From the NCBI GenBank assembly GCA_024682255.1, contig GCA_024682255.1_4716.1: a stretch of 64,000 nucleotides of DNA, one strand, 5' to 3'. Below the pieces are notes generated by a model. That model ran no database searches. It had not been told where the DNA came from and worked only from the letters and a program-made list of their open reading frames with translations. Shown piece after piece: positions 4,928-53,332 of this stretch. Position 1 is the stretch's first letter; each line of letters begins with the position of its first letter. The stretch is from a phage. Both the position numbers and the translations under genes were made by a program.

Positions 4928-6364
4928 TTACTTTTTCGATGCCGCTTTCTCAAGAATCTTGAAAAAGGTCATACCTATACCGACAACGGCCGCAGTTATA
5001 CTCGCAGCGGCTTTCCAAACATCGACGTTACGTTGACGTCGCGCTTCTTCCGCCTCACGTTGTCTTTTTGCCTCTTCATCTCGACGACGTAGCTCGGCCG
5101 TGAATTCATCATGCTTACGTTTCGCGTCCTCATCTCGGCGACGCATTTCAGCGATAAATTCATCGTGCTTTCGTTTTGCTTCCTCATCACGACGTTTTAA
5201 ATCAGCTTGATAATCTTCGTGTATTTGTCTACGTAGATCATCTTGACGTTTCATTTCGGCTTGGTGTTGTTCCATCCTACGTTTTTGTTCGTCTTTAAGC
5301 TGATCGAGTTCGGCTTTATGTTGTTCATCACGCAGCTTTGCGTCGGCGCGATGCGCCTCGTGCATCTGTGCGATAACTGCCTTGTGTTCATCCGCCATAC
5401 GTCGCATTTCAGCCATCACCCCTTTAAGGGTTTCTTCTGATGCCTTACGTTCGTAGCTACGTTGGTCGAAATCATTTTTGTAGGCTTCTTTTTGGACGGG
5501 GTCGCGCCAATGCAATGCCGATTCACGTGTCGGAAAAACATTGTACTTCCACATCTCTTTTTCCAAATCTTCGACCGGTACGAAGATGGAGTCATTATTC
5601 CCGAAGGTAACCAACATACCTGGCGCGCCTGCTCCATTCGTTGGTTTTATTTCGAACGCTTTCCCCAGCACGTTAACCCATAAGCTATACGGATTATGAA
5701 AGTCGGGTGGCGTCCAATGGATAGTGAGTTGTGTTCCGAGAATCCGGAAACCCTCTGTTTTTCCCGTCAAGCTCCGCGCGCACGTTGCGATGTAGGGGTG
5801 ATCAATCCCTTTCGTAACGTGGTCTGCGCTTTTGTATTCTCCTTTAACTTTTACGATTGCCACGTTGATTTGCGCGACATAAGCGGGTTGATTAAAGTTC
5901 AACGTGTTGAGGTCAATTTGACATATCTCATCCAGCGTATCGTACCAGTCTTGCTGGTCTAATAGACGCGGCATTTTCTCTGTGTTAACAATACGACGGA
6001 TATGCGGTTTCCTTATCGCGTAACCTGTGCCGTTTTTAACACGGAGTATATCCCGACGTCTACCCGCGTAGACGAAGTTTCTGAATGCACCATTCGCATT
6101 AGATACGTCATGGCTGTCAACTATTACAGGACTACGAAATTTTGAACGTCGTACGATCCTGAATGTATTGCCGTCCTCAACCCTACCAGGAATGTACTGG
6201 AACATATTGTCGGAGGTGATAACCAACACGGTATGGCCAGATTCATTAATACATGCCCATCCTAATTCCAGGTCATATAACGGTTCAGCATAACCGTCAA
6301 TGCGATAAGCGTGCGTACCATCCCACGGTTCGAACGCGGTATCACATATTGGCATGGAGGGCAT
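4928..6364 (-). CDS. hypothetical protein with tandem charged coiled-coil repeats and a C-terminal transmembrane anchor
   Basis: ATG at 6362-6364 with GGAGG upstream (the track's TTG at 6370 is probably not the start). Near the C-terminus the 18-aa unit RRDE[ED]AKRKHDEF[IT]AE[ML]R occurs twice in tandem with a third partial copy, followed by hydrophobic AAASITAAVVGIGMTFF. Confidence 0.8.
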   Translation of the reverse strand: MPSMPICDTAFEPWDGTHAYRIDGYAEPLYDLELGWACINESGHTVLVITSDNMFQYIPGRVEDGNTFRIVRRSKFRSPVIVDSHDVSNANGAFRNFVYAGRRRDILRVKNGTGYAIRKPHIRRIVNTEKMPRLLDQQDWYDTLDEICQIDLNTLNFNQPAYVAQINVAIVKVKGEYKSADHVTKGIDHPYIATCARSLTGKTEGFRILGTQLTIHWTPPDFHNPYSLWVNVLGKAFEIKPTNGAGAPGMLVTFGNNDSIFVPVEDLEKEMWKYNVFPTRESALHWRDPVQKEAYKNDFDQRSYERKASEETLKGVMAEMRRMADEHKAVIAQMHEAHRADAKLRDEQHKAELDQLKDEQKRRMEQHQAEMKRQDDLRRQIHEDYQADLKRRDEEAKRKHDEFIAEMRRRDEDAKRKHDEFTAELRRRDEEAKRQREAEEARRQRNVDVWKAAASITAAVVGIGMTFFKILEKAASKK

Positions 6365-6572
6365 CGTCAACCTCCATCTGATTGAAAACTATCACGCATA
6401 ACGCATTTCCCTTTTCTTGTTCTTATCAATCCGACAGCCGACGGTTTCAGCATCGTTCCTAGCGCGAGAACGACCTTACGTGTTGTCTATGCCTTATTCA
6501 TCGCAGGCGTCTGTCACCTAGGTAATGTAAGCGTCAAATTTTTTCTATTCGCAACGATAAACGGCATAGAAA

Positions 6573-6603
6573 CCTCCCCCAACCCTTACGGGCTGAGGGA
6601 GGC
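6573..6603 (-). terminator. GC-rich hairpin of the dispersed family, downstream of the 740-aa gene
   Basis: cctccc...gggagg arms 100 bp past the stop at 6702; preceded on the plus strand by catag, which is TATG on the minus strand after the hairpin. Confidence 0.55.
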
Positions 6604-6701
6604 TGACTTATGTATCACGGTGCCGGATGAATGTCCGGTGCAATGAAACCATCCGCAACGTTGTCGTCAAGAATATCATCCAACGAAGCAGCTACGGTAG
6701 T

Positions 6702-8924
6702 TCAGTTGGTCTGAACCGGCAGCTTGATGTTTTCAGTGTAGACCTTACGCAGGTTCACAACGTTAATCAGACCCAGCAGCGGGCAGTTGTTAACGAAGCG
6801 GCAGCGCGGCTGAACCATGGTTTCTTTAGAAACCTGACCGTTACGGGTAACCTGAGCAACAGATACCAGTTCCGGTACATACAGGAACATACCGAAGGTC
6901 AGCGGATCCGGAGAACCCTGGATACCACGAGACAGGGTCACGAAGATCTTATCGCGCAGCATGACGTTCGGGTTATCTACAACCACGAAGTTGAAGCTTA
7001 CACCAACGGTACGGAAATCACCATCGGTCTGCAGGAACTGCGGGATGTAGTTGTCAGTTGCTACTACGCAACGCGGTTTCTCATCAGCGTTGGAAGACAG
7101 CAGCTGCAGAGCTGGCTGATAACCAGACTCGGAGTACATGCGGTATGCCATTTCACGAATCACGTTCATGATCGCAGCAGACACTTCAGCACGACGTTCT
7201 GCAGTGGTGGTACCCTGAACAGATTTCTCCAGGTCCAGATTGATTTCTTCGAACCACGGACGGATCAGGTAACGACCGAAACCTTCGATCTGGATGTCGC
7301 CGAACTGACGGAAGCGAGAGGTCGCAACCGCTTTCAGTGCGTCTTTGTAGCTGAACAGTTTCTCAACCATCAGGTTGTCGAAACGTGCGTTAGCAGCTTG
7401 GATCAGAACGTCCAGGTCAGCAGCGTTTTCTTCCCAATCCAGCGGACGAGGAATGGAGAACGGAGCCAGCAGGCCGATTGCGTAACGTTCTTGCTTCATG
7501 TTGAAGTCAAGGTGCTTACCACGCTCACGACGGTTGCTGTTGTTACGGCGGATACGCAGTTCGTAACCAACCAGTTTGAAGCTCAGGTCTTCAGCCAGTT
7601 GTTTGAACTCTTCGCTCTTACGCGGTTGTTCGATGTTGTCCTGATCAACCAGGCGATACAGTTCAGCGTTAGCGCCGTTAACACGCAGACCGGCTTTCTC
7701 TACGTTGGAAGAACCGTAAACTTCGATTGCCAGCTGAGCAGCGGATTTCGCATCGATGATGTCCTGCAGCGCTTCGGCTTTCGCGCCTTTAACGTCAACG
7801 GTGTTCTCATCAACGAAGATGGAGTGGGTGTCGAACGCCAGGGTCATTTTGCGGAAGTCGCCTTCCAGGGATTTCTGGAAACCGTTGGTGATCAGACCAG
7901 ATACGTCGAACGGTACGTAAGAGGTTTTGCTGTGCTTGGTAGATTTGATTTCCACCAGGATTTTGGTCAGCGTGATCTGGGCGTCCAGTGCGTCGGTGTT
8001 GTCGCTGTAACCGTTAGCCAGGATGCTATCGTCTTCAGCAATACCGATCATGTCGATCAGTTTATCAACAGCCAGGTAAGACGTTTTATAAGTTACGCCT
8101 TTAATTTCGATGTCACGCGGAGCAACGATAGTTTTGTCAACGAAGTACTGTGCGTTAGCATCGTCAGCACGATAGATCGGATGCAGATCGGTCACGTCGT
8201 TGGACAGAACGTCGTTGTACATGAACGCATCCAGCAGCGGACGACGTACCCAATCAGCCGGAGTACCGTCAGCGTTACGACGCAGGTGGTTGAACACCAG
8301 CGGACGACGGAAAGATACGTCGTAACCGATCTGGTTCGGAGCCAGAACGATGGTGTTATACAGTTCGTTACCCATGCGGCTCAGACGAGAAGCCTTCACG
8401 TTGAACACAACGGAGTACGGCATCATGTCACGCAGTTCTTTCTGGTCGTAGGACAGCTGAACCAGTTCTTCAGATTCGCAACCGCAGGAATCAGCAGCCA
8501 TCATGACGAAGTTAGAGCTGTCAACTTCACGGCCAGACGGAGTGGTGCTGATGTTCATGGAACGTGCTTGTTTAGCATATTCCACCGGGTTACCATGAGC
8601 CAGCATGATCAGTGCTGCTGCACGAGCCTGCTGTGCGTTCATGGTGAACAGCTGTTCTTCAATACGCTGCTTCTCTTCCGGAGTGGTGGTTTCGAAGCCC
8701 AGCATGGACAGAACCGGTTCTTCGGCTTTACGGATGTCGCTGCTGAAGCTCTTAACATCCATTTCGTTAACCAGTTTGTCCATGGATTTGAAATCAACCT
8801 TAGAAGCAGATTCCATAGACAGGAAGGTGTTCTCCAGACCTTTGTCTGCTGGTTTGCTACCATTAGCGGTCAGGAACTGGCGAGTGGCCGCGACCTGTTG
8901 GCTAAGAAGGGTTTTATCATTCAT
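6702..8924 (-). CDS. abundant virion structural protein, putative major capsid protein (740 aa)
   Basis: ATG at 8924 with AAGGATA upstream. Strong codon bias (CGT, CTG, GAA, AAC preferred) indicates high expression, and the length matches jumbo-phage major capsid proteins. No fold-diagnostic motif is readable, so tail sheath or another abundant protein cannot be excluded. Confidence 0.45.
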   Translation of the reverse strand: MNDKTLLSQQVAATRQFLTANGSKPADKGLENTFLSMESASKVDFKSMDKLVNEMDVKSFSSDIRKAEEPVLSMLGFETTTPEEKQRIEEQLFTMNAQQARAAALIMLAHGNPVEYAKQARSMNISTTPSGREVDSSNFVMMAADSCGCESEELVQLSYDQKELRDMMPYSVVFNVKASRLSRMGNELYNTIVLAPNQIGYDVSFRRPLVFNHLRRNADGTPADWVRRPLLDAFMYNDVLSNDVTDLHPIYRADDANAQYFVDKTIVAPRDIEIKGVTYKTSYLAVDKLIDMIGIAEDDSILANGYSDNTDALDAQITLTKILVEIKSTKHSKTSYVPFDVSGLITNGFQKSLEGDFRKMTLAFDTHSIFVDENTVDVKGAKAEALQDIIDAKSAAQLAIEVYGSSNVEKAGLRVNGANAELYRLVDQDNIEQPRKSEEFKQLAEDLSFKLVGYELRIRRNNSNRRERGKHLDFNMKQERYAIGLLAPFSIPRPLDWEENAADLDVLIQAANARFDNLMVEKLFSYKDALKAVATSRFRQFGDIQIEGFGRYLIRPWFEEINLDLEKSVQGTTTAERRAEVSAAIMNVIREMAYRMYSESGYQPALQLLSSNADEKPRCVVATDNYIPQFLQTDGDFRTVGVSFNFVVVDNPNVMLRDKIFVTLSRGIQGSPDPLTFGMFLYVPELVSVAQVTRNGQVSKETMVQPRCRFVNNCPLLGLINVVNLRKVYTENIKLPVQTN

Positions 8925-44608: not shown

Positions 44609-45919
44609 TTAGGCGATAATGGAATCAAGAGTCGCTGCGGTTTTGAACAGATCGCTGTTCATTGTAGAAGAAAGGGCTTGCTGAATTTCTTCCTGTTTAA
44701 CCGCCTTACGAACCCCAGGACGAAGGGCGATAGTCACCATTTGCATGAACGTACGGTTGTTGTTCATTTCTTTCAGTGTATCATCGATTGTTTTAATCGT
44801 GTCTAGCGTAGTTGAACGGATATCGTTAGGGAGATCGCGATCTTTCAGGCGTATAATCAGATCCTGTTTGATCTTACGGAATCGTTCCATATCGTTATCG
44901 TAAATGTTGTATGTTGGATCTAACCAAACTGCAAGCGCCATAGCGGCAACAAATATTGCCATACCGAGAATATTAACCGAGGTGAAGCTGATTGCAATCA
45001 GAATAGCCACGGCGGCATCTTTAATGAAGGAGAGCCAGAACATCGTTTTGGACTTCATGGAGTCTTTGCTATAATACCGATACATTTTAGCAAGCCCGCT
45101 AACGAGATACTCCCCACCACCATGACGTGTAGCGAACTGATCAGCCATGAATTCGGAAGCAACGTCGGTATATCGTCCAGCGTTGTTTACATTTCGTAAT
45201 TGCATCGCTTTGTTAGATACGTAAACCGTGTACCAGACACTACCATCGTCTGAATCACTGATTTTGTCTACGTCGACGTTGGTATCCAGCGTTTTGTTTA
45301 ACGCTTTCGCCAGTTCGATACGTTTTACCTTATCGGTTGTCCCCAACAGTTCACGCTGCACGGTCATGATTGAGGCTTCGACACGAACCGTTTCCGACAA
45401 TGTTTCGAGGAAAGTAAACGCATGACCGATTTCATGCAGCATTATGGCCGCTTTTTCTTCCGGAAGAAAGGGTTCTGTCGCTGCTAGCAGTTCATACGTG
45501 ATGGCAGAACGAATCTTCAACTCCTCAAAGATACCGTAAACACGACCTTTTTCTAAATCGACGTAACCGACAGGCGTATCTTTAATCTTCTTAAGGAGCG
45601 TAACACCATCAGCACCACGCATCCATAACCGATGATAGTCTGCCAAGATCGTGTTGTTTGTCGAAATATCCGGCGGGTACACGTAGGCATTCATCTGGCC
45701 CATTTTCACGTCGACCGAGAATTCGATGTTCAACCCCGTATAGCGTTTAACCATCTCGGTTAAACGACCGTCCTTGAAAACGTTTAAAACATCTTTTTTA
45801 TCCAGTCCCTGTTTGCTTCTGAAGAACTCGGTCATTTCCTTGAACAAGGAACCATCCTGAAACTTGATGGCTTCCATCGTTAATTCGTCATGACCATACA
45901 CGCGTTGTAGTAATGACAT
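44609..45919 (-). CDS. putative membrane-associated zinc metallopeptidase (HEXXH motif)
   Basis: ATG at 45919. The translation contains AAIMLHEIGHAF (HEIGH zincin signature) and, further C-terminal, a run of about 45 hydrophobic residues consistent with two transmembrane helices. Confidence 0.5.
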   Translation of the reverse strand: MSLLQRVYGHDELTMEAIKFQDGSLFKEMTEFFRSKQGLDKKDVLNVFKDGRLTEMVKRYTGLNIEFSVDVKMGQMNAYVYPPDISTNNTILADYHRLWMRGADGVTLLKKIKDTPVGYVDLEKGRVYGIFEELKIRSAITYELLAATEPFLPEEKAAIMLHEIGHAFTFLETLSETVRVEASIMTVQRELLGTTDKVKRIELAKALNKTLDTNVDVDKISDSDDGSVWYTVYVSNKAMQLRNVNNAGRYTDVASEFMADQFATRHGGGEYLVSGLAKMYRYYSKDSMKSKTMFWLSFIKDAAVAILIAISFTSVNILGMAIFVAAMALAVWLDPTYNIYDNDMERFRKIKQDLIIRLKDRDLPNDIRSTTLDTIKTIDDTLKEMNNNRTFMQMVTIALRPGVRKAVKQEEIQQALSSTMNSDLFKTAATLDSIIA

Positions 45920-45930
45920 TGTACACTCTC

Positions 45931-45948
45931 TAAATTTACGTAAATTTA
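45931..45948. promoter_or_regulatory. 18-bp perfect palindrome in a divergent intergenic region
   Basis: taaatttacgtaaattta equals its own reverse complement; it sits 12 nt upstream of the metallopeptidase start codon, overlapping its leader. Confidence 0.5.
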
Positions 45949-46140
45949 AGGGCTAATGGATCGGCTGGCCGCACCAATCACAATGTGTCCGCTGCTATGC
46001 AACGGCATTCATAGAAATACCTTTTGACGGTAACATCACCCATCACACCCCAAGCAATAAGAGTGGTCGGTTAAAAACAACAGAACGTGGGGATGATATA
46101 GAAAATCACCTTTTAACACTTATTACGAGTTTATCAAGCC

Positions 46141-47640
46141 ATGAGCGAACAAGAACGAAAACCTAAGAAGAAACTGCTCGGTATTCAATGTCGACACATC
46201 AGCTATAACGAAGCGAACGATGGCAGCAAGAACGACCTCATGATCGCAAAAGAGATCATGTTCTTTGATGATAATACGCAAGCGACGAACCTTCGCTTCT
46301 TCGAGAATTACAAACGTCCGTTTTGGGTGACGGTAGAGAGTAAACGTAAGAACAAATATAAAAAGGAAAGCGAGAAGCTCTCGCACGTACGTCGCTATGA
46401 TGTCCGTCAAAGTGAACTGGTTGAAAAGATCAGTTCGGTGCTTTATAAAAGACGTGCTGATGATAACACCCGTTTACAGCAGCTTGCACGGAGTCCATAC
46501 CTCTATGGAACGGACGTTAGCGCTAGCTGTTATTTAAAAACCCAATACAATACAAAATGGCCGGAATACGTCGATAAATTACCCGCTTCCATCGCCTGTT
46601 TCGATATCGAAACCGACGTTGTCCATGGACACGGTAAGATCGTCTGTATGTCTATTACAATGGGATACAATGCGATCCTTTGCTATACCAAGGACTTCGT
46701 TGGTCATATTCCGAATGCGATTGAGAAAACCCATGAGAAGATTCGATATTACCTGGCCGAACGTCTAAACACCAAAGAAGATCCGCACGCATTTGAAAAA
46801 TATCAGTACGATGTGCGAATCGTAGAAAGTCCGGCACAAGCGGTCATCCAATGCATGCAGAAGGTTCACGAATGGCAGCCGGATTATCTCCTTGGCTGGA
46901 ATATCGCGTTCGATATTCCGCGCATGCTCCAGGCACTGAACGAAGAAGGGTATCGTCCCGAGGATGTTTTCTCCGATCCCCGTGTACCACCTAAGTATCG
47001 TATTGCTCGCTGGGTACCACCGAAGACCGACAAGGTATCTGCTTCAGGGCGTAAAACCAACCTTACCCTTGAGCAAACCTGGCCGATGTTTTATACGATG
47101 GCTACGTATCAGGTTATGGATGCGATGTGTGGTTATAAGTTCGTTCGTTTAGGAAGACCGGATGAGGGACGTTATTCACTCGATGCGGTATTAGAGCGAA
47201 ATAAATGCCATACGAAATTAAAAGCAATTCCTGGTACAGAAGGGTTCACAGAGCTTGCGTGGCACGAAGAGATGCAAACGAACCATCAAATCGACTACGG
47301 TGTATATAACCTTTGGGATAACCAAGGCATCGAGGCGTTGGACCAGAAAACAAAAGACTATTCGATGACCATCCCTATCCGTTTAGCGGCGTCGGATTTG
47401 AAAGATTTCAGTTCTAACCCTAAACGTATCTGCGATAAACTTTTCTTCGTTTATCTTAACCGTGGGGAAGTCATGGGCTGCACTGCCGACGACATGACCC
47501 AGGAAGAAGATAAGTGGGTTATCTCACGAACCGGACATATCGTCACATTGCCGTGCGATCTCATGGCGGACAACGGCATCCATCTCTTCTGGGATATGCC
47601 GAACCTGAGAAGTTATATTAGATTATTTGTTGCGGATTAA
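46141..47640 (+). CDS. DNA polymerase N-terminal/3'-5' exonuclease domain protein (499 aa as annotated; the C-terminus may be spliced)
   Basis: ATG at 46141. Exo I ACFDIETD, Exo II GWNIAFDIP and Exo III YGVYNLWD are present at family-B-like spacing. No polymerase motifs A, B or C are present, consistent with a split polymerase. Confidence 0.6.
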   Translation: MSEQERKPKKKLLGIQCRHISYNEANDGSKNDLMIAKEIMFFDDNTQATNLRFFENYKRPFWVTVESKRKNKYKKESEKLSHVRRYDVRQSELVEKISSVLYKRRADDNTRLQQLARSPYLYGTDVSASCYLKTQYNTKWPEYVDKLPASIACFDIETDVVHGHGKIVCMSITMGYNAILCYTKDFVGHIPNAIEKTHEKIRYYLAERLNTKEDPHAFEKYQYDVRIVESPAQAVIQCMQKVHEWQPDYLLGWNIAFDIPRMLQALNEEGYRPEDVFSDPRVPPKYRIARWVPPKTDKVSASGRKTNLTLEQTWPMFYTMATYQVMDAMCGYKFVRLGRPDEGRYSLDAVLERNKCHTKLKAIPGTEGFTELAWHEEMQTNHQIDYGVYNLWDNQGIEALDQKTKDYSMTIPIRLAASDLKDFSSNPKRICDKLFFVYLNRGEVMGCTADDMTQEEDKWVISRTGHIVTLPCDLMADNGIHLFWDMPNLRSYIRLFVAD

Positions 47641-47707
47641 GAAATAAATCGGTTAAGTTTTACCTCCTTTCTCGATAAGTATGATACTAAGCGAGCAAGG
47701 AGTTGAT

Positions 47708-48814
47708 ATGTCGAGTAGTTATGAGTATCCAAAGATTACTGAATGTGTTGTTTCCGAAGAAGGTATCTTCGACCTCGATATGAAGCCGTTACCACTTACC
47801 GTGGAAGATGGAATATCGTACGTCAAACTTGACTGGTACCGTGGTCCCGGTCTGTATGACGCAGGTCTTGTGGTAATGCGTAAACTGCATGCTATCAACA
47901 TATACGAAGATCTGTTAGACGAAGCACATTCGTTGTATATCGATGGGAACCCAGAAAACATCAAACGTGAGAACTTGCTTTATCGTTTCAAGAACGGTAA
48001 GTTGGAACACAAGGGTTATCCGGGCTATTACTACGTCCCTTTCTTTACACACTACGTGATAAACGAGCAAGGCGAAGTGATCAGTCTTTTAACCGGGCAA
48101 AAGAAATCATGGACACGGTCGAAAGGGGATCCGAAACGAAATAAGCGTGCTGGGTACTTATATCAGCGCGTCGTTAATGATAATGGTTTCACAGCCCAAA
48201 TGTTTCAACATCGTGCGATGGGTTACGTGTTCCTGGAATACGGTGCCGACGTGATGACAAAGATCATCAACCACATAAACGGCATCAAATGGGATAATCG
48301 TCCATGCAACATTGAATGGACAACCTATTCTGAGAACAACAAGCATGCGATTGATAGCGGTCTTCGTACAGAAGGCTTACATCCTGTTAAGGTTAAGGAT
48401 TACAACACCGGTGAGGTTAGGGTATTCCCAACAATCGCTGCGTGCTGTGCTGCTTATCCATGCTTGGAACGTAAACGTGTTTGGTATTGGATGACGCGTA
48501 AAACGAAATTCATGCCAGCCTGCAATCTGTATTTCAAAGAAGTCGATGATGATACTCCGTGGCCAGATTGGCAAATCGGACAGCACCGTCGTCTTCAGGA
48601 ATACGATATGGGCCACCCTATCGCAGCTATCGATAAGCAAACCGGTAAACGTTATGTGTTTGCATCAATTGCTCACGCACAACGAGAGACGGGTGTTTCT
48701 AACGTGACTATCACGAAGTACTGTCGTAATAGACTTACAGAAGGTCGTTCTCCATTCATCTTCCGCTATTTTGAAGATGTTAGTTCGATGCCTGTAGGCC
48801 TTAACGACGCTTAA
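47708..48814 (+). CDS. HNH homing endonuclease
   Basis: ATG at 47708 with AAGGAG seven nt upstream (an alternative ATG at 47681 exists). HNH motif INHINGIKWDNRPCNIEWTTYSENNKHA and a C-terminal helix-turn-helix-like segment GKRYVFASIAHAQRETGVSNVTITKYC typical of phage homing endonucleases. Confidence 0.8.
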   Translation: MSSSYEYPKITECVVSEEGIFDLDMKPLPLTVEDGISYVKLDWYRGPGLYDAGLVVMRKLHAINIYEDLLDEAHSLYIDGNPENIKRENLLYRFKNGKLEHKGYPGYYYVPFFTHYVINEQGEVISLLTGQKKSWTRSKGDPKRNKRAGYLYQRVVNDNGFTAQMFQHRAMGYVFLEYGADVMTKIINHINGIKWDNRPCNIEWTTYSENNKHAIDSGLRTEGLHPVKVKDYNTGEVRVFPTIAACCAAYPCLERKRVWYWMTRKTKFMPACNLYFKEVDDDTPWPDWQIGQHRRLQEYDMGHPIAAIDKQTGKRYVFASIAHAQRETGVSNVTITKYCRNRLTEGRSPFIFRYFEDVSSMPVGLNDA

Positions 48815-48899
48815 CCGATTTTAGGTCCCGGTGGGGATAACGCCCCCACCGGATTCCCGTTAATTGCTGGAACCCCCTAAAGCCTTTCGACCACAGCGG

Positions 48900-49200
48900 A
48901 TTCTGAAAAGAAAAACGCGATGGTTAGAAAACAGAAAGGATGTTCGTAAGGAAGCGATAAATGGGCAATCAGCAGCGAAGCTTCTAAGGGCGTGCGTTAG
49001 CAATAAGACCTAAGAAGAACGTTCAACGACTATCCGGTCGCGCGGAGTAAGGGACAAGCGTCCCCAAACACGGGAGGGGTGCGAAAGCATTCCATGATAT
49101 AGTCTGCTCCTAAGTGAAAGCTTAGGCGGGTGGCACACACCGGCATAAGAGTTGCGTCTTATGTGGACAATGGCTTGACATCTCCTCGTCCTACCCGAAT
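48900..49200 (+). ncRNA. putative group I intron catalytic core (boundaries approximate)
   Basis: Non-coding, GC-rich stretch after the endonuclease gene. P7-like pairing GACUA (49028-49032) with UAGUC (49100-49104), a candidate P8 hairpin gggac-aagc-gtccc (49051-49064) between them, and a P9-like hairpin cctaag-tgaaag-cttagg (49109-49126) directly after, in the canonical order. Confidence 0.45.
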
Positions 49201-49475
49201 GGGCAGATCCTGTTGAATCTATCCAGAGCATGTGTTTTTCGTGAGCTCTCACGCATTGAGGGCGTCTCTGACTATCAATTCAGGAAGTTAGGTATCAACT
49301 TTATTACCGGAGGTAAAACGAACGCTGTAGACTTCTGTAGAATCGTTTATAAAGCACCGTCGATGTTTGAACTTTTAGAACATTTCGATGCGACGCGTCC
49401 AAAAGAGGAAGCACGGACCATCGAATGAATCAAGTATGTTGATCCTCGTTTAACAAAAAAGAAAACGCATGCGAA

Positions 49476-49513
49476 GCCCCTCCCCCTGGCGGAAGCCGGA
49501 GGGAGGGGTGGGG
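49476..49513. terminator. Bidirectional hairpin between convergent transcription units
   Basis: cccctcccc...gggagggg arms with a 15-nt loop, preceded by an A-rich stretch. Confidence 0.55.
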
Positions 49514-49514
49514 T

Positions 49515-50000
49515 TTATGTGTGTTCGTTGCCAACTTTCACTTTGTAATCAGCATCGGTTAAGAAAATAGACAGGAATCCATGTTCTTTGCAAATCTGAC
49601 TAAGGATGTCAGCAATGATTTCGTTGATCATCGGTTTGTTTGCAAGGGCATAGATGTACCCGGGTGTAAAAGAAAGTGCATGATTGATCATAGGCTCATG
49701 AGAAGCCAAGATAAGGATCACGTGATGCTTCCCATCGTCGGTAACGACCGCTTGCGTAGACACGAAGAAATCAGTGAAGCAGCAGCGATCACAGGCTTTA
49801 GGTATATACAAATCACCCAGAGCTTCGTCACGTGCTTTTACGTGTGTTTCAGGGGTAATGCTGCTAAGTTGATCTTCAGCGAGATCCAAGACATCCTCAA
49901 TCGTTTTAAGAATAGCGTTGCGGAAATCCTCGCGGTAGAATGGGATGATATCACGATCGTTCATGTAATCGCCGGATTCGATAGTAAAGTTGATGTTCAT
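49515..50000 (-). CDS. hypothetical small protein (161 aa), member 1 of a nine-gene array
   Basis: ATG at 50000 with AGGAG upstream. Confidence 0.75.
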   Translation of the reverse strand: MNINFTIESGDYMNDRDIIPFYREDFRNAILKTIEDVLDLAEDQLSSITPETHVKARDEALGDLYIPKACDRCCFTDFFVSTQAVVTDDGKHHVILILASHEPMINHALSFTPGYIYALANKPMINEIIADILSQICKEHGFLSIFLTDADYKVKVGNEHT

Positions 50001-50050
50001 TGAATGCTCCTAGTGGTTATGTCGATTGATTGATGTATTGATTTATGTTT

Positions 50051-50069
50051 GAAGGTGTTGTTCACCTTC
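50051..50069 (-). terminator. Hairpin gaaggtg-ttgtt-caccttc adjacent to a stop codon
   Basis: 7-bp stem immediately after the stop at 50071; part of the exact 25-nt repeat also found at 26344-26368. Confidence 0.5.
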
Positions 50070-50070
50070 G

Positions 50071-50511
50071 TTAGATATCATCATCCGTGGTGCCGTAGGA
50101 CATATGCTGAATTAATTTTCTCGGCTCGATGAAAATACGACATGTGATAAACACATCGGGATCGTATTGCTCCACGCAACGTCCGAAGGCTTGTTTTGCG
50201 GCTTGACGCACCGATGTTATTTCCTGATCGTTCATCGCATTATCGAATTCGATGTTGATCGTGATTTTATCGGGAAATAAATAGATAAAGTAATCGCCAC
50301 TGATACCACCATCATCAAAGTGACGTTCATTGTAACACTGGACGAGCTTACCTTCACGTTCTTTCTGATACCATCCAAGGATACTATTAAGACCTCTGTC
50401 CACGCATTCGAATGCTTGAGTAATAACATCCTCAACGACGGAGGCTGCCGTGGGACCATTGAATAGACGATCTAAGCGCTTTTTCATCGATTTGTCGGTT
50501 TTCATGTTCAT
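50071..50511 (-). CDS. hypothetical small protein (about 146 aa), array member 2
   Basis: The track's start at 50538 abuts the hairpin at 50543-50573 with no ribosome-binding site; the internal ATG at 50511 (MNMKTDK) with AGGAAAAG upstream is preferred. Start is uncertain. Confidence 0.6.
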   Translation of the reverse strand: MNMKTDKSMKKRLDRLFNGPTAASVVEDVITQAFECVDRGLNSILGWYQKEREGKLVQCYNERHFDDGGISGDYFIYLFPDKITINIEFDNAMNDQEITSVRQAAKQAFGRCVEQYDPDVFITCRIFIEPRKLIQHMSYGTTDDDI

Positions 50512-50542
50512 TGTTTCTTTTCCTGTTATAGTCAACATATAG

Positions 50543-50573
50543 CCCTTCCCCGGCCTTGACGGCTAGGGAAGGG
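50543..50573 (-). terminator. Hairpin of the dispersed family (cccttccc variant)
   Basis: cccttccc...gggaaggg arms; catatag precedes it on the plus strand. Confidence 0.5.
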
Positions 50574-50588
50574 TATGTTTACGTATAT

Positions 50589-50984
50589 TTACTCTTTGAC
50601 GTCAGTTGTCGTTTCGACATGCTTCTCACTACTGACGTACCAGAGCAGGTACGCTGGGAAAAGATTGACCTCTAAGCTAAATGGGATATTGTATTTCTCT
50701 TCCATTTTACAGAGATGTTCTTTAAGTAAATTTCTCGCGTCTCTGTCACCACGAACAGAGTGCCAGTCTAGTTCTTTGTTCTCCTTTACCAGGACCTCTA
50801 CGATGATACGTTGCTCGTGAACCTCGGTTTTCACAGTGAAAAGTAAATCGCTGCTATCAAAACGGGTAAAACGAATGTATGAACCTGGTGTTTTTTCTTG
50901 TTTAATAATATCGATCATGGTAGAAATGCGCGGATGATCGATGTTGTCGTTAACAGCTTTAACGATGGATTCTACAATGCTCAT
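50589..50984 (-). CDS. hypothetical small protein (131 aa), array member 3
   Basis: ATG at 50984 with AAGGAT upstream; AT-rich region upstream. Confidence 0.75.
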   Translation of the reverse strand: MSIVESIVKAVNDNIDHPRISTMIDIIKQEKTPGSYIRFTRFDSSDLLFTVKTEVHEQRIIVEVLVKENKELDWHSVRGDRDARNLLKEHLCKMEEKYNIPFSLEVNLFPAYLLWYVSSEKHVETTTDVKE

Positions 50985-51141
50985 TTTTTATCCTTAATGT
51001 TATCGATTTAGAAATATTACTTAATTACTGTTTTATTTATCGATGGTTGTTACCCATGATGGGAAAGCCGGATGGAAACAGAGCGTGAACGTAACCTTCG
51101 TATCGTATTTAATCGCTGAACTTTATCTTTGATAGACATGA

Positions 51142-51600
51142 TTACCCCTTAGCTCCTTCTTCGTCTGGAGAGTATTCCATCGTGTAGAATTCATAACCAT
51201 CGGAAAACTTGAGTGTTAATGTAATAGGGAAATCGCACGGCATAGCTGATTTCGTAAATGCGTTATTAGCAACATCAGCCAACCGACGTATAGCATCGGT
51301 CCCGCTGACGCTGAACGGTAGTTGTATGTTGATAAGGATACGACGCTTGTAAACATAGAAAACAACGGTACTGTCGAGATAAACGCTATGGAACGGTATT
51401 GTTGGGATGCGTTCCACAATGGTAAAATACGTCCCGTCATTATCGCTATGCCCCATCGACCAAATATCGGATTTGCGTAGATTTTGTTTGAGGGATTCGA
51501 TACTTCGAGTGACGGTCTCAGCAACAGGCGTGACGTAAGTGTCTCTATGCGAGTCGAAAAGTTCGTTGACGTTAGATTCGAATGAATACATTGTTGCCAT
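51142..51600 (-). CDS. hypothetical small protein (152 aa), array member 4
   Basis: ATG at 51600 with GAGGTAG upstream. Confidence 0.75.
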   Translation of the reverse strand: MATMYSFESNVNELFDSHRDTYVTPVAETVTRSIESLKQNLRKSDIWSMGHSDNDGTYFTIVERIPTIPFHSVYLDSTVVFYVYKRRILINIQLPFSVSGTDAIRRLADVANNAFTKSAMPCDFPITLTLKFSDGYEFYTMEYSPDEEGAKG

Positions 51601-51626
51601 TTTCTACCTCAATAGTTTAACCGGCA

Positions 51627-51652
51627 CGTGTCCCCACCTAACAAGGGACACG
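51627..51652 (-). terminator. Hairpin cgtgtccc-loop-gggacacg
   Basis: 8-bp stem between array members. Confidence 0.45.
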
Positions 51653-51666
51653 ATATCATCGATTAA

Positions 51667-52161
51667 TTACTCTTCTGTGTTTTCATTGTCAGGATCGTAG
51701 TGGAATTCGAACAGCCCTGAACCGTCGTGCCCGTTGATTGTTAGTATAACGGGCATATCGAATCCTCGGACGCGCGAATGAAAACACTGTGCTAATTTGA
51801 GTTTGGCGTATGCCACTATTTCATTGACGGCAATGCACGACTCACCTGTTATACTCAGTATAACGTCGATACTAACAATGTTGTCGTGCAACGCAAAACG
51901 CCAGCGATCGATACGATTATTATCTTTAGCAGGTGTCTCGTTTACGAGATAGACTTTATCGTCAACCGACAAAGCGGGACTCCAGCAACGTTCGTTTATT
52001 AAATTCGCCTGGAGTTTTAGTATCGTCTGATCAATAATATCCCAACACGCAACCAGCGTGGCGTCAGACACTGAATTGAGAAGGGTGAGTACTTTATCCT
52101 TTATTTTAAGTGCTTCCGCAGGACGCCCGCAAATACCATGCATTTCAACTTTCTTATTCAT
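51667..52161 (-). CDS. hypothetical small protein (about 164 aa), array member 5
   Basis: The track's start at 52167 is GTG; the ATG at 52159-52161 is used. Confidence 0.65.
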   Translation of the reverse strand: MNKKVEMHGICGRPAEALKIKDKVLTLLNSVSDATLVACWDIIDQTILKLQANLINERCWSPALSVDDKVYLVNETPAKDNNRIDRWRFALHDNIVSIDVILSITGESCIAVNEIVAYAKLKLAQCFHSRVRGFDMPVILTINGHDGSGLFEFHYDPDNENTEE

Positions 52162-52206
52162 ATTCACTTCTTTCTTAATCTAAATGTTAGTTGGGGGATG
52201 GGATGC

Positions 52207-52809
52207 TTACATGCTTTCTAGCATATTGACGATCATGGAACCCATACCGAAACTCGGTCTCTCACCGATATACTCAGCAAGTTGACGGTGTACGTCTTTT
52301 GGATTTCCTTCTTCACCGTCAGCATCGATGTAGACCGAAAAAGAAACCGAATCGGAATCCACGCTGATAACCAGACGACGTTCATTGCGTTCCTTGAGCG
52401 TGTCGACGATAGATGCTTTCAGTACCGGGATCGCATTCATCGCGTGCAAGATATCTCCATCAGGTCTCGCCAGATCGATCTTTTCTTTCAGGTCGATATT
52501 GATGTTGGTTACAATTGGGTTGAGGTCGACCTTGACATAATCGTTGGGATACATGCGAATAATCGCACGATCGATATCTGAACCGTAAAAGTCAACACGT
52601 GGCTTTAACACCTCTTTGTTTGGATCCATGTTTTCATCCATACCCGCCTGCAAGAAACGTTCTACGTTATCCAGTTCACGATAAACTGACGCTTCGATTT
52701 CTTTCAGATAGTTGGCTGCGGTTTCATGTTCTTTACGTAGCTCGTCTTTAAGGAGCTGTACGGTGGTTTCACTGGAACGAATGCTGTTCGCGAATTGGGT
52801 AATTGACAT
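52207..52809 (-). CDS. hypothetical small protein (about 200 aa), array member 6
   Basis: The track's start at 52839 is TTG; the ATG at 52807-52809 (MSITQF) with AAGGAA upstream is used. Confidence 0.65.
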   Translation of the reverse strand: MSITQFANSIRSSETTVQLLKDELRKEHETAANYLKEIEASVYRELDNVERFLQAGMDENMDPNKEVLKPRVDFYGSDIDRAIIRMYPNDYVKVDLNPIVTNINIDLKEKIDLARPDGDILHAMNAIPVLKASIVDTLKERNERRLVISVDSDSVSFSVYIDADGEEGNPKDVHRQLAEYIGERPSFGMGSMIVNMLESM

Positions 52810-52863
52810 ATCGAATTCCTTAAATTCTCTTGAGTTCAATTGATGATGAAAAGCTGTAAAAAA

Positions 52864-52881
52864 GGTGGGGCGAACCCCACC
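52864..52881 (-). terminator. Classic intrinsic terminator
   Basis: On the minus strand: GGUGGGG-UUCG-CCCCACC followed by UUUUUU, directly after the stop at 52907. Confidence 0.7.
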
Positions 52882-52906
52882 AAAACGTCAGACACACGCA
52901 GGAAAA

Positions 52907-53332
52907 TTAATTCAGTGACGCATATAAGGCATAACGACTGTAGATTTCAACCGCCGGTCCGTTATGCGTTAACAGACCATCCCGGTTGTAATACTGGAAA
53001 AATGAATAACGTTTGTCGAAGTGATAAACAAAAGCAATGTCTTTGCCGTCAAAACCTGTGATGCGTGGTCTGTTTTTATCTAGCAATGCTTTAACTTTTA
53101 ACAGTGTTGCCGCACGTGCTTTAACGTTAGGGATCAAGCCATCACAATCGATATAAACAGTGTAACCTGTTTCAGATGTTGCGACGGTCGTATTGCGATT
53201 GACGCGGAAGATTTTTGTTTCGTATGTACTATCTTCAAGAATTGGGTTTTGTTTTTCGTATTTTCGTTTACGCAGAAATTCTACAACGGTGATATAGTTA
53301 GCGGTAATATGCCCGGTTATAGCTTGTAACAT
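52907..53332 (-). CDS. hypothetical small protein (141 aa), array member 7
   Basis: ATG at 53332 with AAAGGATG upstream. Confidence 0.75.
   Translation of the reverse strand: MLQAITGHITANYITVVEFLRKRKYEKQNPILEDSTYETKIFRVNRNTTVATSETGYTVYIDCDGLIPNVKARAATLLKVKALLDKNRPRITGFDGKDIAFVYHFDKRYSFFQYYNRDGLLTHNGPAVEIYSRYALYASLN

Follow-up and report, generated by a model that had tools for sequence, protein, structure and literature searches.

Group I introns that carry an HNH endonuclease gene, belong to subgroup IA2 and occupy conserved sites of phage DNA polymerase genes are classical, with examples in the Bacillus phages SPO1, SP82 and Bastille, in PhiI and W31, in the cyanophage Pf-WMP3 and in phiL7. 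In nucleus-forming jumbo phages, PhiPA3 harbours putative group I introns located directly after conserved Asp residues of an essential polymerase and associated with an I-HmuI-like HNH nicking endonuclease (PMC11620839; bioRxiv 10.1101/2023.09.22.559000), and intron-mediated interference competition has to date been demonstrated for a single RNA polymerase intron of a Pseudomonas phage (PMC11620839). As far as its title tells, reference 37 in PMC11620839 deals with similar introns bearing highly divergent open reading frames (ORFs) in related phages. The locus considered here belongs to a stretch of phage DNA of 64,000 nucleotides, hereafter the window (NCBI GenBank assembly GCA_024682255.1, contig GCA_024682255.1_4716.1), where positions 47638-49173 of the plus strand very probably correspond to a mobile IA2 group I intron, inserted between codons D499 and L500 of a PolB-like DNA polymerase gene, in a Goslar-like jumbo phage of the nucleus-forming kind. 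Goslar itself (Escherichia phage vB_EcoM_Goslar) is a 237-kb nucleus-forming jumbo phage of the genus Goslarvirus (GenBank record). A previous inspection of the letters alone, here the sequence-only reading, had proposed a group I intron with an HNH homing endonuclease downstream of a polymerase part, and this proposal is sustained by both a covariance-model match and an allele devoid of the insertion, as presented below.

The comparison with relatives lacking the insertion, as suggested in the sequence-only reading, proved decisive. P0001, the best match to the polymerase, is encoded on a 237,273-bp metagenomic Goslar-like contig (L002) with the same neighbour genes and without the insertion, and its protein reads straight through the junction as ...IRLFVAD-LDISSSYPNGQ-ILLNL.... 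Exon 1 (46141-47637, plus strand) comprises 499 codons ending in ...FVAD, with U47637 as its last base, and is colinear with this uninterrupted allele; exon 2 (49174-49428, plus strand) comprises 84 codons and a TGA stop, and starts with LDISSSYPNGQ..., that is PolB motif A. Joined together, they make up 1752 nt or 583 codons with 65 mismatches and no gap against P0001/L002, and the spliced product of 583 residues is 98% identical to P0001 (583 residues), the residue count being the same without any gap. The alternative that the host exons could be other than those of the polymerase gene is excluded, since exon 1 and exon 2 reproduce the 583 residues of the uninterrupted allele.

At the DNA level, GCAGAC|CTTGACATT in the uninterrupted allele corresponds to GCGGAT[TAAGAA...CAATGG]CTTGACATC in the window, and the boundaries can be set without ambiguity, since the two sides of each show different bases. 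The L002-type intron-less junction reads ...TTCGTTGCAGAC|CTTGACATTAGCAGT... and the junction peptide of the spliced window product would be LFVADLDISSSYPNGQ. The intron so delimited is of IA2 type, 1536 nt long, starts with UAA and ends with G49173 (omega-G); it separates ...FVAD|LDISSSYP... one codon upstream of the motif A catalytic Asp. The polymerase gene had been read as stopping at 47640 and a 499-codon ORF does end there, but its TAA (47638-47640) represents the first three intron bases, hence an in-frame stop for unspliced RNA, and the gene continues in exon 2. Similarly, the frame ending at 49428 that had been put forward as a 3' exon is indeed that of exon 2, though it starts at 49174 and not at TTG 49213. 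A first guess for the junction, FVAD|ILLNL, had followed the point where identity to Goslar resumes (~49205); the alignment of homologues revealed that it lacked 11 residues (LDISSSYPNGQ), and the 3' splice site was set at G49173 instead.

Used as a query, the trial spliced protein retrieved 207 homologues, most of them of 560-600 residues and covering 96-100% of the query. The final spliced product matches phrog_3011 'DNA polymerase' from position 5 to position 570 of the 576-position profile (E 4.4e-178). A profile of 16 homologues aligns with RB69 gp43 (E 4e-4) in three colinear stretches, the last of which sets hvaDLDvssaYP against RB69 residues 404-431 (...SFDLTSLYPS...), with D501 opposite RB69 D411. 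As the latter is the motif A catalytic Asp of RB69, D501 would be the motif A catalytic Asp of the window protein. The Pfam domain DNA_pol_B_exo1 reaches 16.4 bits on the polymerase, below the cut-off of 23. PolB motifs B and C being absent from the 583-residue protein, the remainder of the polymerase catalytic domain must, on the evidence of the protein sequence, be encoded elsewhere or be very divergent. Of note, the family ends about 80 residues past motif A in all homologues.

The coding status of exon 2 can be assessed from three alleles. Its protein sequence is identical in the window, the uninterrupted allele and Goslar, and the codon differences are all synonymous, amounting to 8 between the window and the intron-less allele, 16 between the window and Goslar, and 18 between Goslar and the intron-less allele; because of this, exon 2 is, judging from the codon differences across alleles, translated in the frame of exon 1. 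In addition, neither a start codon nor a Shine-Dalgarno sequence (ribosome-binding site) is present at 49174, and the first available start, TTG 49213, would omit motif A.

The same site is occupied in several other genomes. The window region 46000-49600 is 96.5% identical to Goslar, in two pieces covering 57% of the query, and the gene layout is the same; the Goslar record lists gp068 'DNA polymerase' (499 residues), gp069 'NUMOD1 domain protein', then about 800 nt without a gene followed by convergent minus-strand genes, exon 2 and the intron being left unannotated. When aligned, the window and Goslar are nearly identical through the TAA at 47638-47640, fall abruptly to ~55-60% identity from 47641 on and remain at low identity across the HNH gene and the ribozyme, near identity being back from about 49195-49205. 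Relatives whose polymerase gene ends at the same stop codon and is followed by an unrelated gene would speak against an intron, and the Goslar annotation resembles this situation only superficially; it is no refutation, since Goslar has at this very site a homologous intron that the record does not annotate. Introns with the same boundaries measure 1762 nt in Goslar, 2434 nt in L007, 1778 nt in L008, 380 nt in L010 and 372 nt in L011, the last two without ORF; L007, L008, L010 and L011 are metagenomic chimallivirus-like contigs, and the intron of L009 starts alike (GAU|UGA) and is cut by the contig end. The six introns with both ends defined (window, Goslar, L007, L008, L010 and L011) start as GAU|U(A/G)A and end with G, after which the exon reads (C/U)UNGAY. 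They share the J3/4-P4 element AAUUGCUGGAA (not L007, the P4 region of which reads ACUUGCG), GCAGCGAAG, GUUCAACGACUA (GCUCAACGGCCA in L007), GAUAUAGUCU (GAGAUGGUCU in L007), a P9 hairpin usually closed by GAAA and, ahead of the 3' end, GUGGACAA or a sequence close to it.

Regarding the ribozyme core, the covariance-model scan for group I introns was positive, with Rfam RF00028 (Intron_gpI) matching 48801-49126 on the plus strand at 68.7 bits (gathering score 50, E 2.5e-15) over model positions 1-253 of 253; no other Rfam match was found in the 64-kb window even at E <= 0.01, and no second intron there. In the Rfam alignment, P3 pairs UUCCCGU (48854-48860) with ACGGGAG (49070-49076) through seven standard pairs, which were verified. 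P4 (48865-48870/48969-48974) encloses P5 (48875-48877/48963-48965) and a P5a/b extension, the whole spanning 48865-48974, with compensatory changes in P5a among related introns. The P6/P6a hairpin follows (48975-49022), six of the eight pairs of its main helix being changed on both sides and still paired. The guanosine-binding helix P7 associates GACUA (49028-49032) with UAGUC (49100-49104), exactly the strands recognised in the sequence-only reading; the pairs were verified, and the helix is GACCA or GGCCA with UGGUC in Goslar, L007 and L010, a compensatory change from U-A to C-G. P8 is a 6-bp hairpin with a GAAA tetraloop (49077-49082/49087-49092), 75% paired and with 4/6 pairs changed on both sides, and P9 (49109-49126), rightly described earlier as P9-like, has a GAAA loop and 5/7 pairs changed on both sides. 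Upstream of P3, P2 (48829-48851) comprises 8 bp (48829-48836 with 48844-48851), relatives having hairpins of different sequence at the same place.

Between P7 and the 3' strand of P3, sequence and folding delineate P7.1 (49034-49045), a GUA linker (49047-49049) kept in all aligned introns, and P7.2 (49051-49064; 5 bp, GGGAC/GUCCC). The latter hairpin had already been noticed but was mistaken for P8, which lies at 49077-49092. Subgroup IA2 is defined by the presence of P7.1 and P7.2 between P7 and P3', linked by G-U-A (PMC3428280); as P7.1 and P7.2 are joined here by the conserved GUA, the architecture of the window intron is, by this helix criterion applied to a predicted structure, that of subgroup IA2. 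Further downstream, the fold and the alignment of the six introns indicate 3' peripheral hairpins over 49128-49173 (GGUG/CACC at ~49130-49142; P9.2 at 49144-49163), as well as the conserved octamer GUGGACAA (49163-49170), three nt before the terminal G49173. Five of the six aligned introns keep this octamer, exactly or nearly so, at their 3' end, with mismatches in L008 and L011; its GGAC is complementary to the guide GUCC, and RNAalifold pairs both if exon 1 is omitted, without covariation. It could provide an alternative pairing competing with P1, or a tertiary or P9.0-type element.

The core helices P3-P9, with the P3/P7 pseudoknot, are supported by covariation. With the structure taken from the window helices, 34 of the 67 core pairs are changed on both sides yet paired among the six introns (0/500 shuffles as high), and 69% of the cells are paired vs. 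36-53% when the 3' partners are slid. The paired fraction reaches 97% in P4, 89% in P5, 90% in P7 and 75-100% in P6 and P8. Run independently, RNAalifold reports compensatory changes in 27/52 pairs. Besides, a mini-intron of 408 nt in which the loop is replaced by GAAA folds with a z of -4.6, and its fold recovers P1a, P2, P6, P7.1, P7.2, P8, P9 and the 3' hairpins.

In the 5' part of the intron, RNAduplex predicts P1 to be formed by the 5' strand GGAU|U (47634-47638), with the 5' splice site after U47637 in a U-G wobble with G48825, and by the internal guide sequence GGUCC (48824-48828), some 1.19 kb downstream of this splice site; alternatively, G48824 could pair with C49174 of exon 2 to give a weak 2-bp P10. 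This assignment of the guide is backed by the related introns, five of which, the ORF-less ones included, have an RGGUC(C/A) element 36-41 nt upstream of the AAUUGC of J3/4. L009 has CGGUCC ~37 nt upstream of AAUUGC, and L007 has AUGUCC, without AAUUGC. In the ORF-less L011, no sequence other than GGUCC can pair with the end of the exon, and it lies 14 nt past the splice site and 37 nt before AAUUGC; in the ORF-less L010, the element lies 71 nt past the splice site, at the same spacing to AAUUGC as in L011. In the window, in Goslar (L001 5924-5928) and in L008, the guide at this same spacing lies downstream of the HNH gene, which places the endonuclease gene in the P1 loop (L1). For Goslar, the guide was first set as AAUGUCCC (L001 5904) from the MAFFT alignment and then replaced by CAGGUCCCC at 5924-5928, which fits the spacing and the consensus of the other introns.

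The base of this long loop would be closed by P1a, a predicted long-range helix of 13 contiguous pairs between AAAUCGGUUAAGU (47646-47658) and GCUUAACCGAUUU (48809-48821), obtained with RNAduplex and in the minimum free energy fold of the mini-intron. The P1 + P1a duplex reaches -18.6 kcal/mol vs. -10.3 +/- 2.7 for shuffled sequences, 2/300 of which are as good (RNAduplex), and the helix can be regarded as moderately supported by this modelling. Helices equivalent to P1a, of other sequence, are predicted in L010 (12/300 shuffles as good), Goslar (31/300) and L007 (49/300). The stop codon of the HNH gene (48812-48814) lies inside the P1a 3' strand, the last 6 nt of the ORF overlapping P1a.

As for the gene in this loop, the HNH endonuclease ORF described earlier at 47708-48814 on the plus strand was found as such. 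It encodes an I-HmuI-like protein of 368 residues, in which the Pfam domains HNH_3 (33.4 bits, cut-off 24.8) and NUMOD1 (24.8 bits, cut-off 22.8) both exceed their cut-offs, and it is preceded by a Shine-Dalgarno-like AAGGAG (47697-47702), read from the sequence 5 nt before ATG 47708. The HNH motif NHINGIKWDNRPCNIEWTTYSENNKH is intact, the protein matches the HNH endonuclease family phrog_59 (E 2.2e-22), and a profile of four homologues matches I-HmuI (1U3E) over I-HmuI residues 10-105 (E 4.6e-6); this four-sequence profile was needed, since the single sequence gave no meaningful match against the PDB. The ORF is full length and its cluster counts 133 members. It is 41% identical to Goslar gp069 over 335 residues, the first 27 window residues being left unaligned, and four homologues with 31-40% identity to it share 59 invariant columns. 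Weaker relatives (25-31% identity) occur mostly in other jumbo phages, including PhiKZ ORF179 and PhiPA3, and no second copy of the gene was found in the window.

From these elements, a complete cycle can be proposed. The polymerase gene would be transcribed through the intron, GGAU and the first intron base would pair with the guide GGUCC, the predicted P1a at the loop base bringing both together, and the core P3-P9 would fold as the Rfam match and covariation suggest. Following group I chemistry, exogenous guanosine bound in P7 would attack after U47637, and the freed exon 1 would in turn attack after G49173, so joining GCGGAU to CUUGAC. The spliced mRNA would give the 583-residue polymerase, and translation of unspliced RNA would stop at the UAA that opens the intron. 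The intron ORF, with its own Shine-Dalgarno sequence, would yield the I-HmuI-like HNH/NUMOD1 endonuclease, which may nick intron-less alleles near the insertion site during co-infection, whereupon repair from intron-bearing genomes would introduce the intron along with adjoining exon sequence.

Several signs are consistent with such mobility. A single 90% protein cluster holds both truncated-length (499 residues) and full-length (583 residues) forms of the polymerase, with, among the members listed, the window exon 1 product (499 residues, 139 contigs), the uninterrupted P0122 (583 residues, 71 contigs) and Goslar gp068 as P0123 (499 residues, 51 contigs); both forms are found on contigs of ~237-259 kb, many of them labelled E. 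coli or Salmonella. The same-site introns of the window and Goslar encode endonucleases only 41% identical, within exons whose proteins are nearly identical. Moreover, synonymous differences between the window and the intron-less allele are concentrated around the junction, affecting 12/24 codons within 12 codons of it vs. 49/560 elsewhere (p 6e-7), and the same clustering appears between the window and Goslar (p 6e-9) and between Goslar and the intron-less allele (p 6e-12). At the guide-pairing bases, four intron-less alleles show GAC and GCA in place of GAU and GCG; they read ATCCGTCTATTCGTTGCAGAC before the site, where both intron-bearing alleles of the Goslar group read ATT(A/C)GATTATTTGTTGCGGAT, a contrast of 6-7 synonymous differences in 21 nt that includes the guide-pairing U at -1 and G at -4. 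These recoded flanks could reflect co-conversion during homing, target immunity and/or a constraint of P1 and splicing on the exon.

Searches for an empty site gave no match in IMG/VR with either exact or degenerate patterns; the degenerate pattern retrieved three intron-less alleles in metagenomes, none with window-type flanks on both sides, and a megablast of 47300-49500 against complete E. coli RefSeq genomes gave no match. One intron-less sequence, L013 (SKEV01002332.1, 1778-1818), has an exon 1 flank of the intron-less type and an exon 2 flank near that of Goslar, its downstream flank (CTCGATATATCTTCAAGCTA...) showing 2 differences in ~30 nt from Goslar (L001 6401-6440); it may have arisen by recombination or by loss of an intron, or may represent the ancestral sequence targeted by the Goslar-type endonuclease. 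Exact copies of the exon 1 protein and of the endonuclease are also found under E. coli and Salmonella enterica names in isolate assemblies, on contigs of 235-259 kb, which suggests that Goslar-like phages are often carried along in enterobacterial cultures.

Some observations weigh against a functional mobile intron and deserve to be considered together. Splicing, self-splicing and the exact RNA junction are what we infer from sequence comparison, and so are endonuclease activity, the cleavage site and homing; the intron is real, and has the looks of a functional and mobile element. The exon part of P1 is short (4 pairs, then the U-G pair made by the first intron base), P10 is limited to 2 bp, the P1a prediction, strong for the window and L010, is weak for Goslar and L007 and absent for L008, and the Rfam alignment itself puts a poor P1 with several non-standard pairs at 48805-48830, over the HNH stop codon. 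This local P1 (region 48801-48831) is an artefact because the model cannot span the 1.15-kb P1 loop. Taken at face value, the Rfam P1 would mislead on the 5' splice site. As to the related introns, no match was obtained at the Rfam gathering threshold in Goslar, L002, L003, L005 or L007, and with an E-value setting the scores stay sub-threshold, at 44.7 bits for Goslar (E 1e-9), 37.9 for L005, 29.3 for L007 and 27.0 for L003. The MAFFT alignment is poor at P2, P3, P7.2 and P9.2, where only ~47-52% of the cells pair. Finally, the three explanations of the recoded flanks are inseparable in these data.

Of the rival explanations, the one that survives best accepts splicing and questions mobility only, the intron being inherited vertically with its homing lost and its endonuclease inactive or domesticated, e.g. 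as a maturase or purely as a competition weapon. Endonuclease activity is here a prediction from the sequence, the first 27 residues do not align with Goslar gp069, and HNH intron endonucleases can act beyond homing, as PhiPA3 gp210 interferes with PhiKZ (PMC11620839). Yet, the full-length ORF, its intact HNH motif and the 59 invariant columns, the coexistence of full-length and truncated-length polymerases in one cluster, the two divergent intron/endonuclease variants at one site between nearly identical exon proteins, and the clustering of recoded flanks at the insertion site all make this scenario unlikely. A decayed, non-splicing relic, with the polymerase made as two polypeptides (a 499-residue exonuclease part and a separate C-terminal piece) or with exon 2 dead, is more improbable still: the Goslar GenBank annotation of a 499-residue gp068 with nothing over exon 2, the short P1 and P10, and the sub-threshold Rfam scores of the related introns would agree with it, but exon 2 offers no start codon or Shine-Dalgarno sequence at 49174 and would lose motif A if started at TTG 49213, its differences among the three alleles are all synonymous when read in the frame of exon 1, the catalytic core (68.7 bits) is intact with its helices maintained by compensatory changes, and U at -1 and G at -4, both required for P1, are confined to intron-bearing alleles. 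As for a free-standing HNH gene outside a shorter intron (~48800-49173), the end of the HNH gene serving as 5' exon and the polymerase ORF truly ending at 47640, it is scarcely credible even though free-standing endonucleases adjoining introns are known and the Rfam alignment starts at 48801 with a P1 hairpin over the HNH stop codon, since that P1 contains several non-standard pairs, the uninterrupted allele lacks the entire 47638-49173 with the HNH gene included, identity to Goslar drops exactly at 47641 and not at 48800, the ORF-less relatives have the same guide 14-71 nt past GAU|U, and the HNH ORF joined to exon 2 would give no known protein, whereas exon 1 joined to exon 2 gives a full-length phrog_3011.

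A mobile, spliced IA2 intron thus being retained, a broader and clearly more tentative proposal is that it acts as a weapon and a barrier between co-infecting Goslar-like nucleus-forming phages, by analogy with PhiPA3. Three allelic states are seen in E. coli- or Salmonella-associated samples, namely the window-type endonuclease intron, the Goslar-type endonuclease intron and the intron-less form with its own synonymous recoding of the target. With at least three such states circulating, the endonuclease might be imported into the phage nucleus to nick the polymerase genes of rivals, and the flanks might record an arms race between cleavage and immunity. If this were true, the phage could afford an ORF in the P1 loop with its stop codon in P1a, since transcription and splicing would take place in the phage nucleus, apart from translation.

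The homologues suggest other insertion sites in the same polymerase gene, roughly 40% of the metagenomic ones ending near VAD, ADLD or DWI. In L003 (5480-6000; metagenomic contig ERZ28616137 scaffold_6), P0014, P0022, P0069, P0098 and P0103, exon 1 ends in ...ADLD and exon 2 resumes with IVSTYP, i.e. 2 codons (6 nt) downstream of the window site and directly past the catalytic Asp codon; the L003 insertion has no ORF and matches the group I model weakly (27 bits). From these sequences, motif A would seem to hold a second, independent site of insertion. In L005 (5471-7500; Logan SRR29149956_154), a group I core (37.9 bits, plus strand) comes directly after exon 1, which appears to end later (FVADLDV...), and, before exon 2 (7493-7792) is reached, the opposite strand encodes an HNH_3 protein of 320 residues (6081-7043); L006 is organised alike. 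It is unusual for an intron to have its endonuclease gene in antisense orientation. In addition, at least 10 metagenomic homologues (P0064, P0080, P0091, P0097, P0105, P0108, P0109, P0111, P0116 and P0120) lose similarity ~30 codons earlier, at ...DWI/GWV in the conserved WIVTLP (window ~47530-47550), some of them adding a few to ~25 unrelated residues, which suggests, from protein sequences, a third insertion hot spot.

Downstream of exon 2, seven small genes (131-210 residues) occupy the minus strand at 49515-53332, convergent with the polymerase gene; weak paralogy links two neighbouring ones, 51142-51600 and 51667-52167 (21% identity, E 1e-6), and the intron-less L002 differs from the window and Goslar in how many genes this block holds and in their sizes. 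A G+C-rich inverted repeat, GCCCCTCCCCCTGG...CCGGAGGGAGGGGT (49455-49512), lies between exon 2 and the minus-strand gene ending at 49515, Goslar differing at one base. It was not called by a simple terminator scan and is probably, from its sequence and position, a bidirectional terminator. No enrichment of sigma-70-like promoters or terminators was found in 45900-49600.

The literature searches returned no description of an intron in the Goslar-type DNA polymerase gene, that of Goslar itself included. Goslar is widely used as an E. coli model for nucleus-forming jumbo phages and its polymerase is annotated with 499 residues; a product of 583 residues including motif A corrects the gene model of an essential replication enzyme. 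The intron-less allele and the two intron variants with divergent endonucleases also form a natural and tractable allele set of E. coli phages for testing intron-mediated interference competition. They can further be used to ask where a group I intron splices, and how its endonuclease reaches DNA, when transcription takes place in a protein shell.

As regards the known systems, the introns of SPO1, SP82 and Bastille (I-HmuI, I-HmuII, I-BasI) are alike in being group I introns in DNA polymerase genes with HNH nicking endonucleases bearing NUMOD-type modules. Their hosts are family A polymerases of phages of Gram-positive bacteria, whereas the window intron sits in a PolB-like gene of an E. coli chimallivirus, at family B motif A; besides, the window endonuclease (368 residues) is about twice as long as the I-HmuI chain (174 residues) and its ORF is located in the P1 loop. 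The pattern of divergent ORFs announced by the title of reference 37 in PMC11620839 is the one seen between the window and Goslar. The DNA polymerase introns of the T7-like PhiI and W31 and of Pf-WMP3 (I-TslI, I-PfoP3I) are IA2 with P7.1/P7.2 and G-U-A, as in the window (PMC3428280). They further agree with the window intron in having a U-G pair at the 5' splice site, a final G, an HNH endonuclease and insertions at several distinct sites of the polymerase gene. They differ by an ORF in or overlapping P6a to P7.2 and by a family A polymerase (PMC3428280), the window ORF being in L1, and the window intron has a P2 that the Pf-WMP3 intron lacks. The PhiPA3 introns in gp210 (the virion RNA polymerase beta-subunit gene) and gp65-66 come from the same family of viruses as the window, the nucleus-forming jumbo phages, and the window endonuclease gives weak tblastn matches (25-28% identity) to PhiPA3 and PhiKZ ORF179; gp210 concerns an RNA polymerase gene and another host bacterium, and its competition role and import into the phage nucleus, both shown for gp210, would extend to the window by analogy. 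Introns with their endonuclease ORF in the P1 loop include the Physarum rDNA intron encoding I-PpoI, where the ORF separates the 5' splice site from the guide and P1 has to form across a long loop; this resemblance is in layout only, as that intron belongs to eukaryotic nuclear rDNA and to another subgroup, and its enzyme is of the His-Cys box type. That an IA2 intron with an HNH endonuclease should occupy the active site of a polymerase is textbook biology, and what sets the window intron apart from the DNA polymerase introns already described is the family B-like host gene, the site in motif A and an ORF in L1 rather than in P6a.

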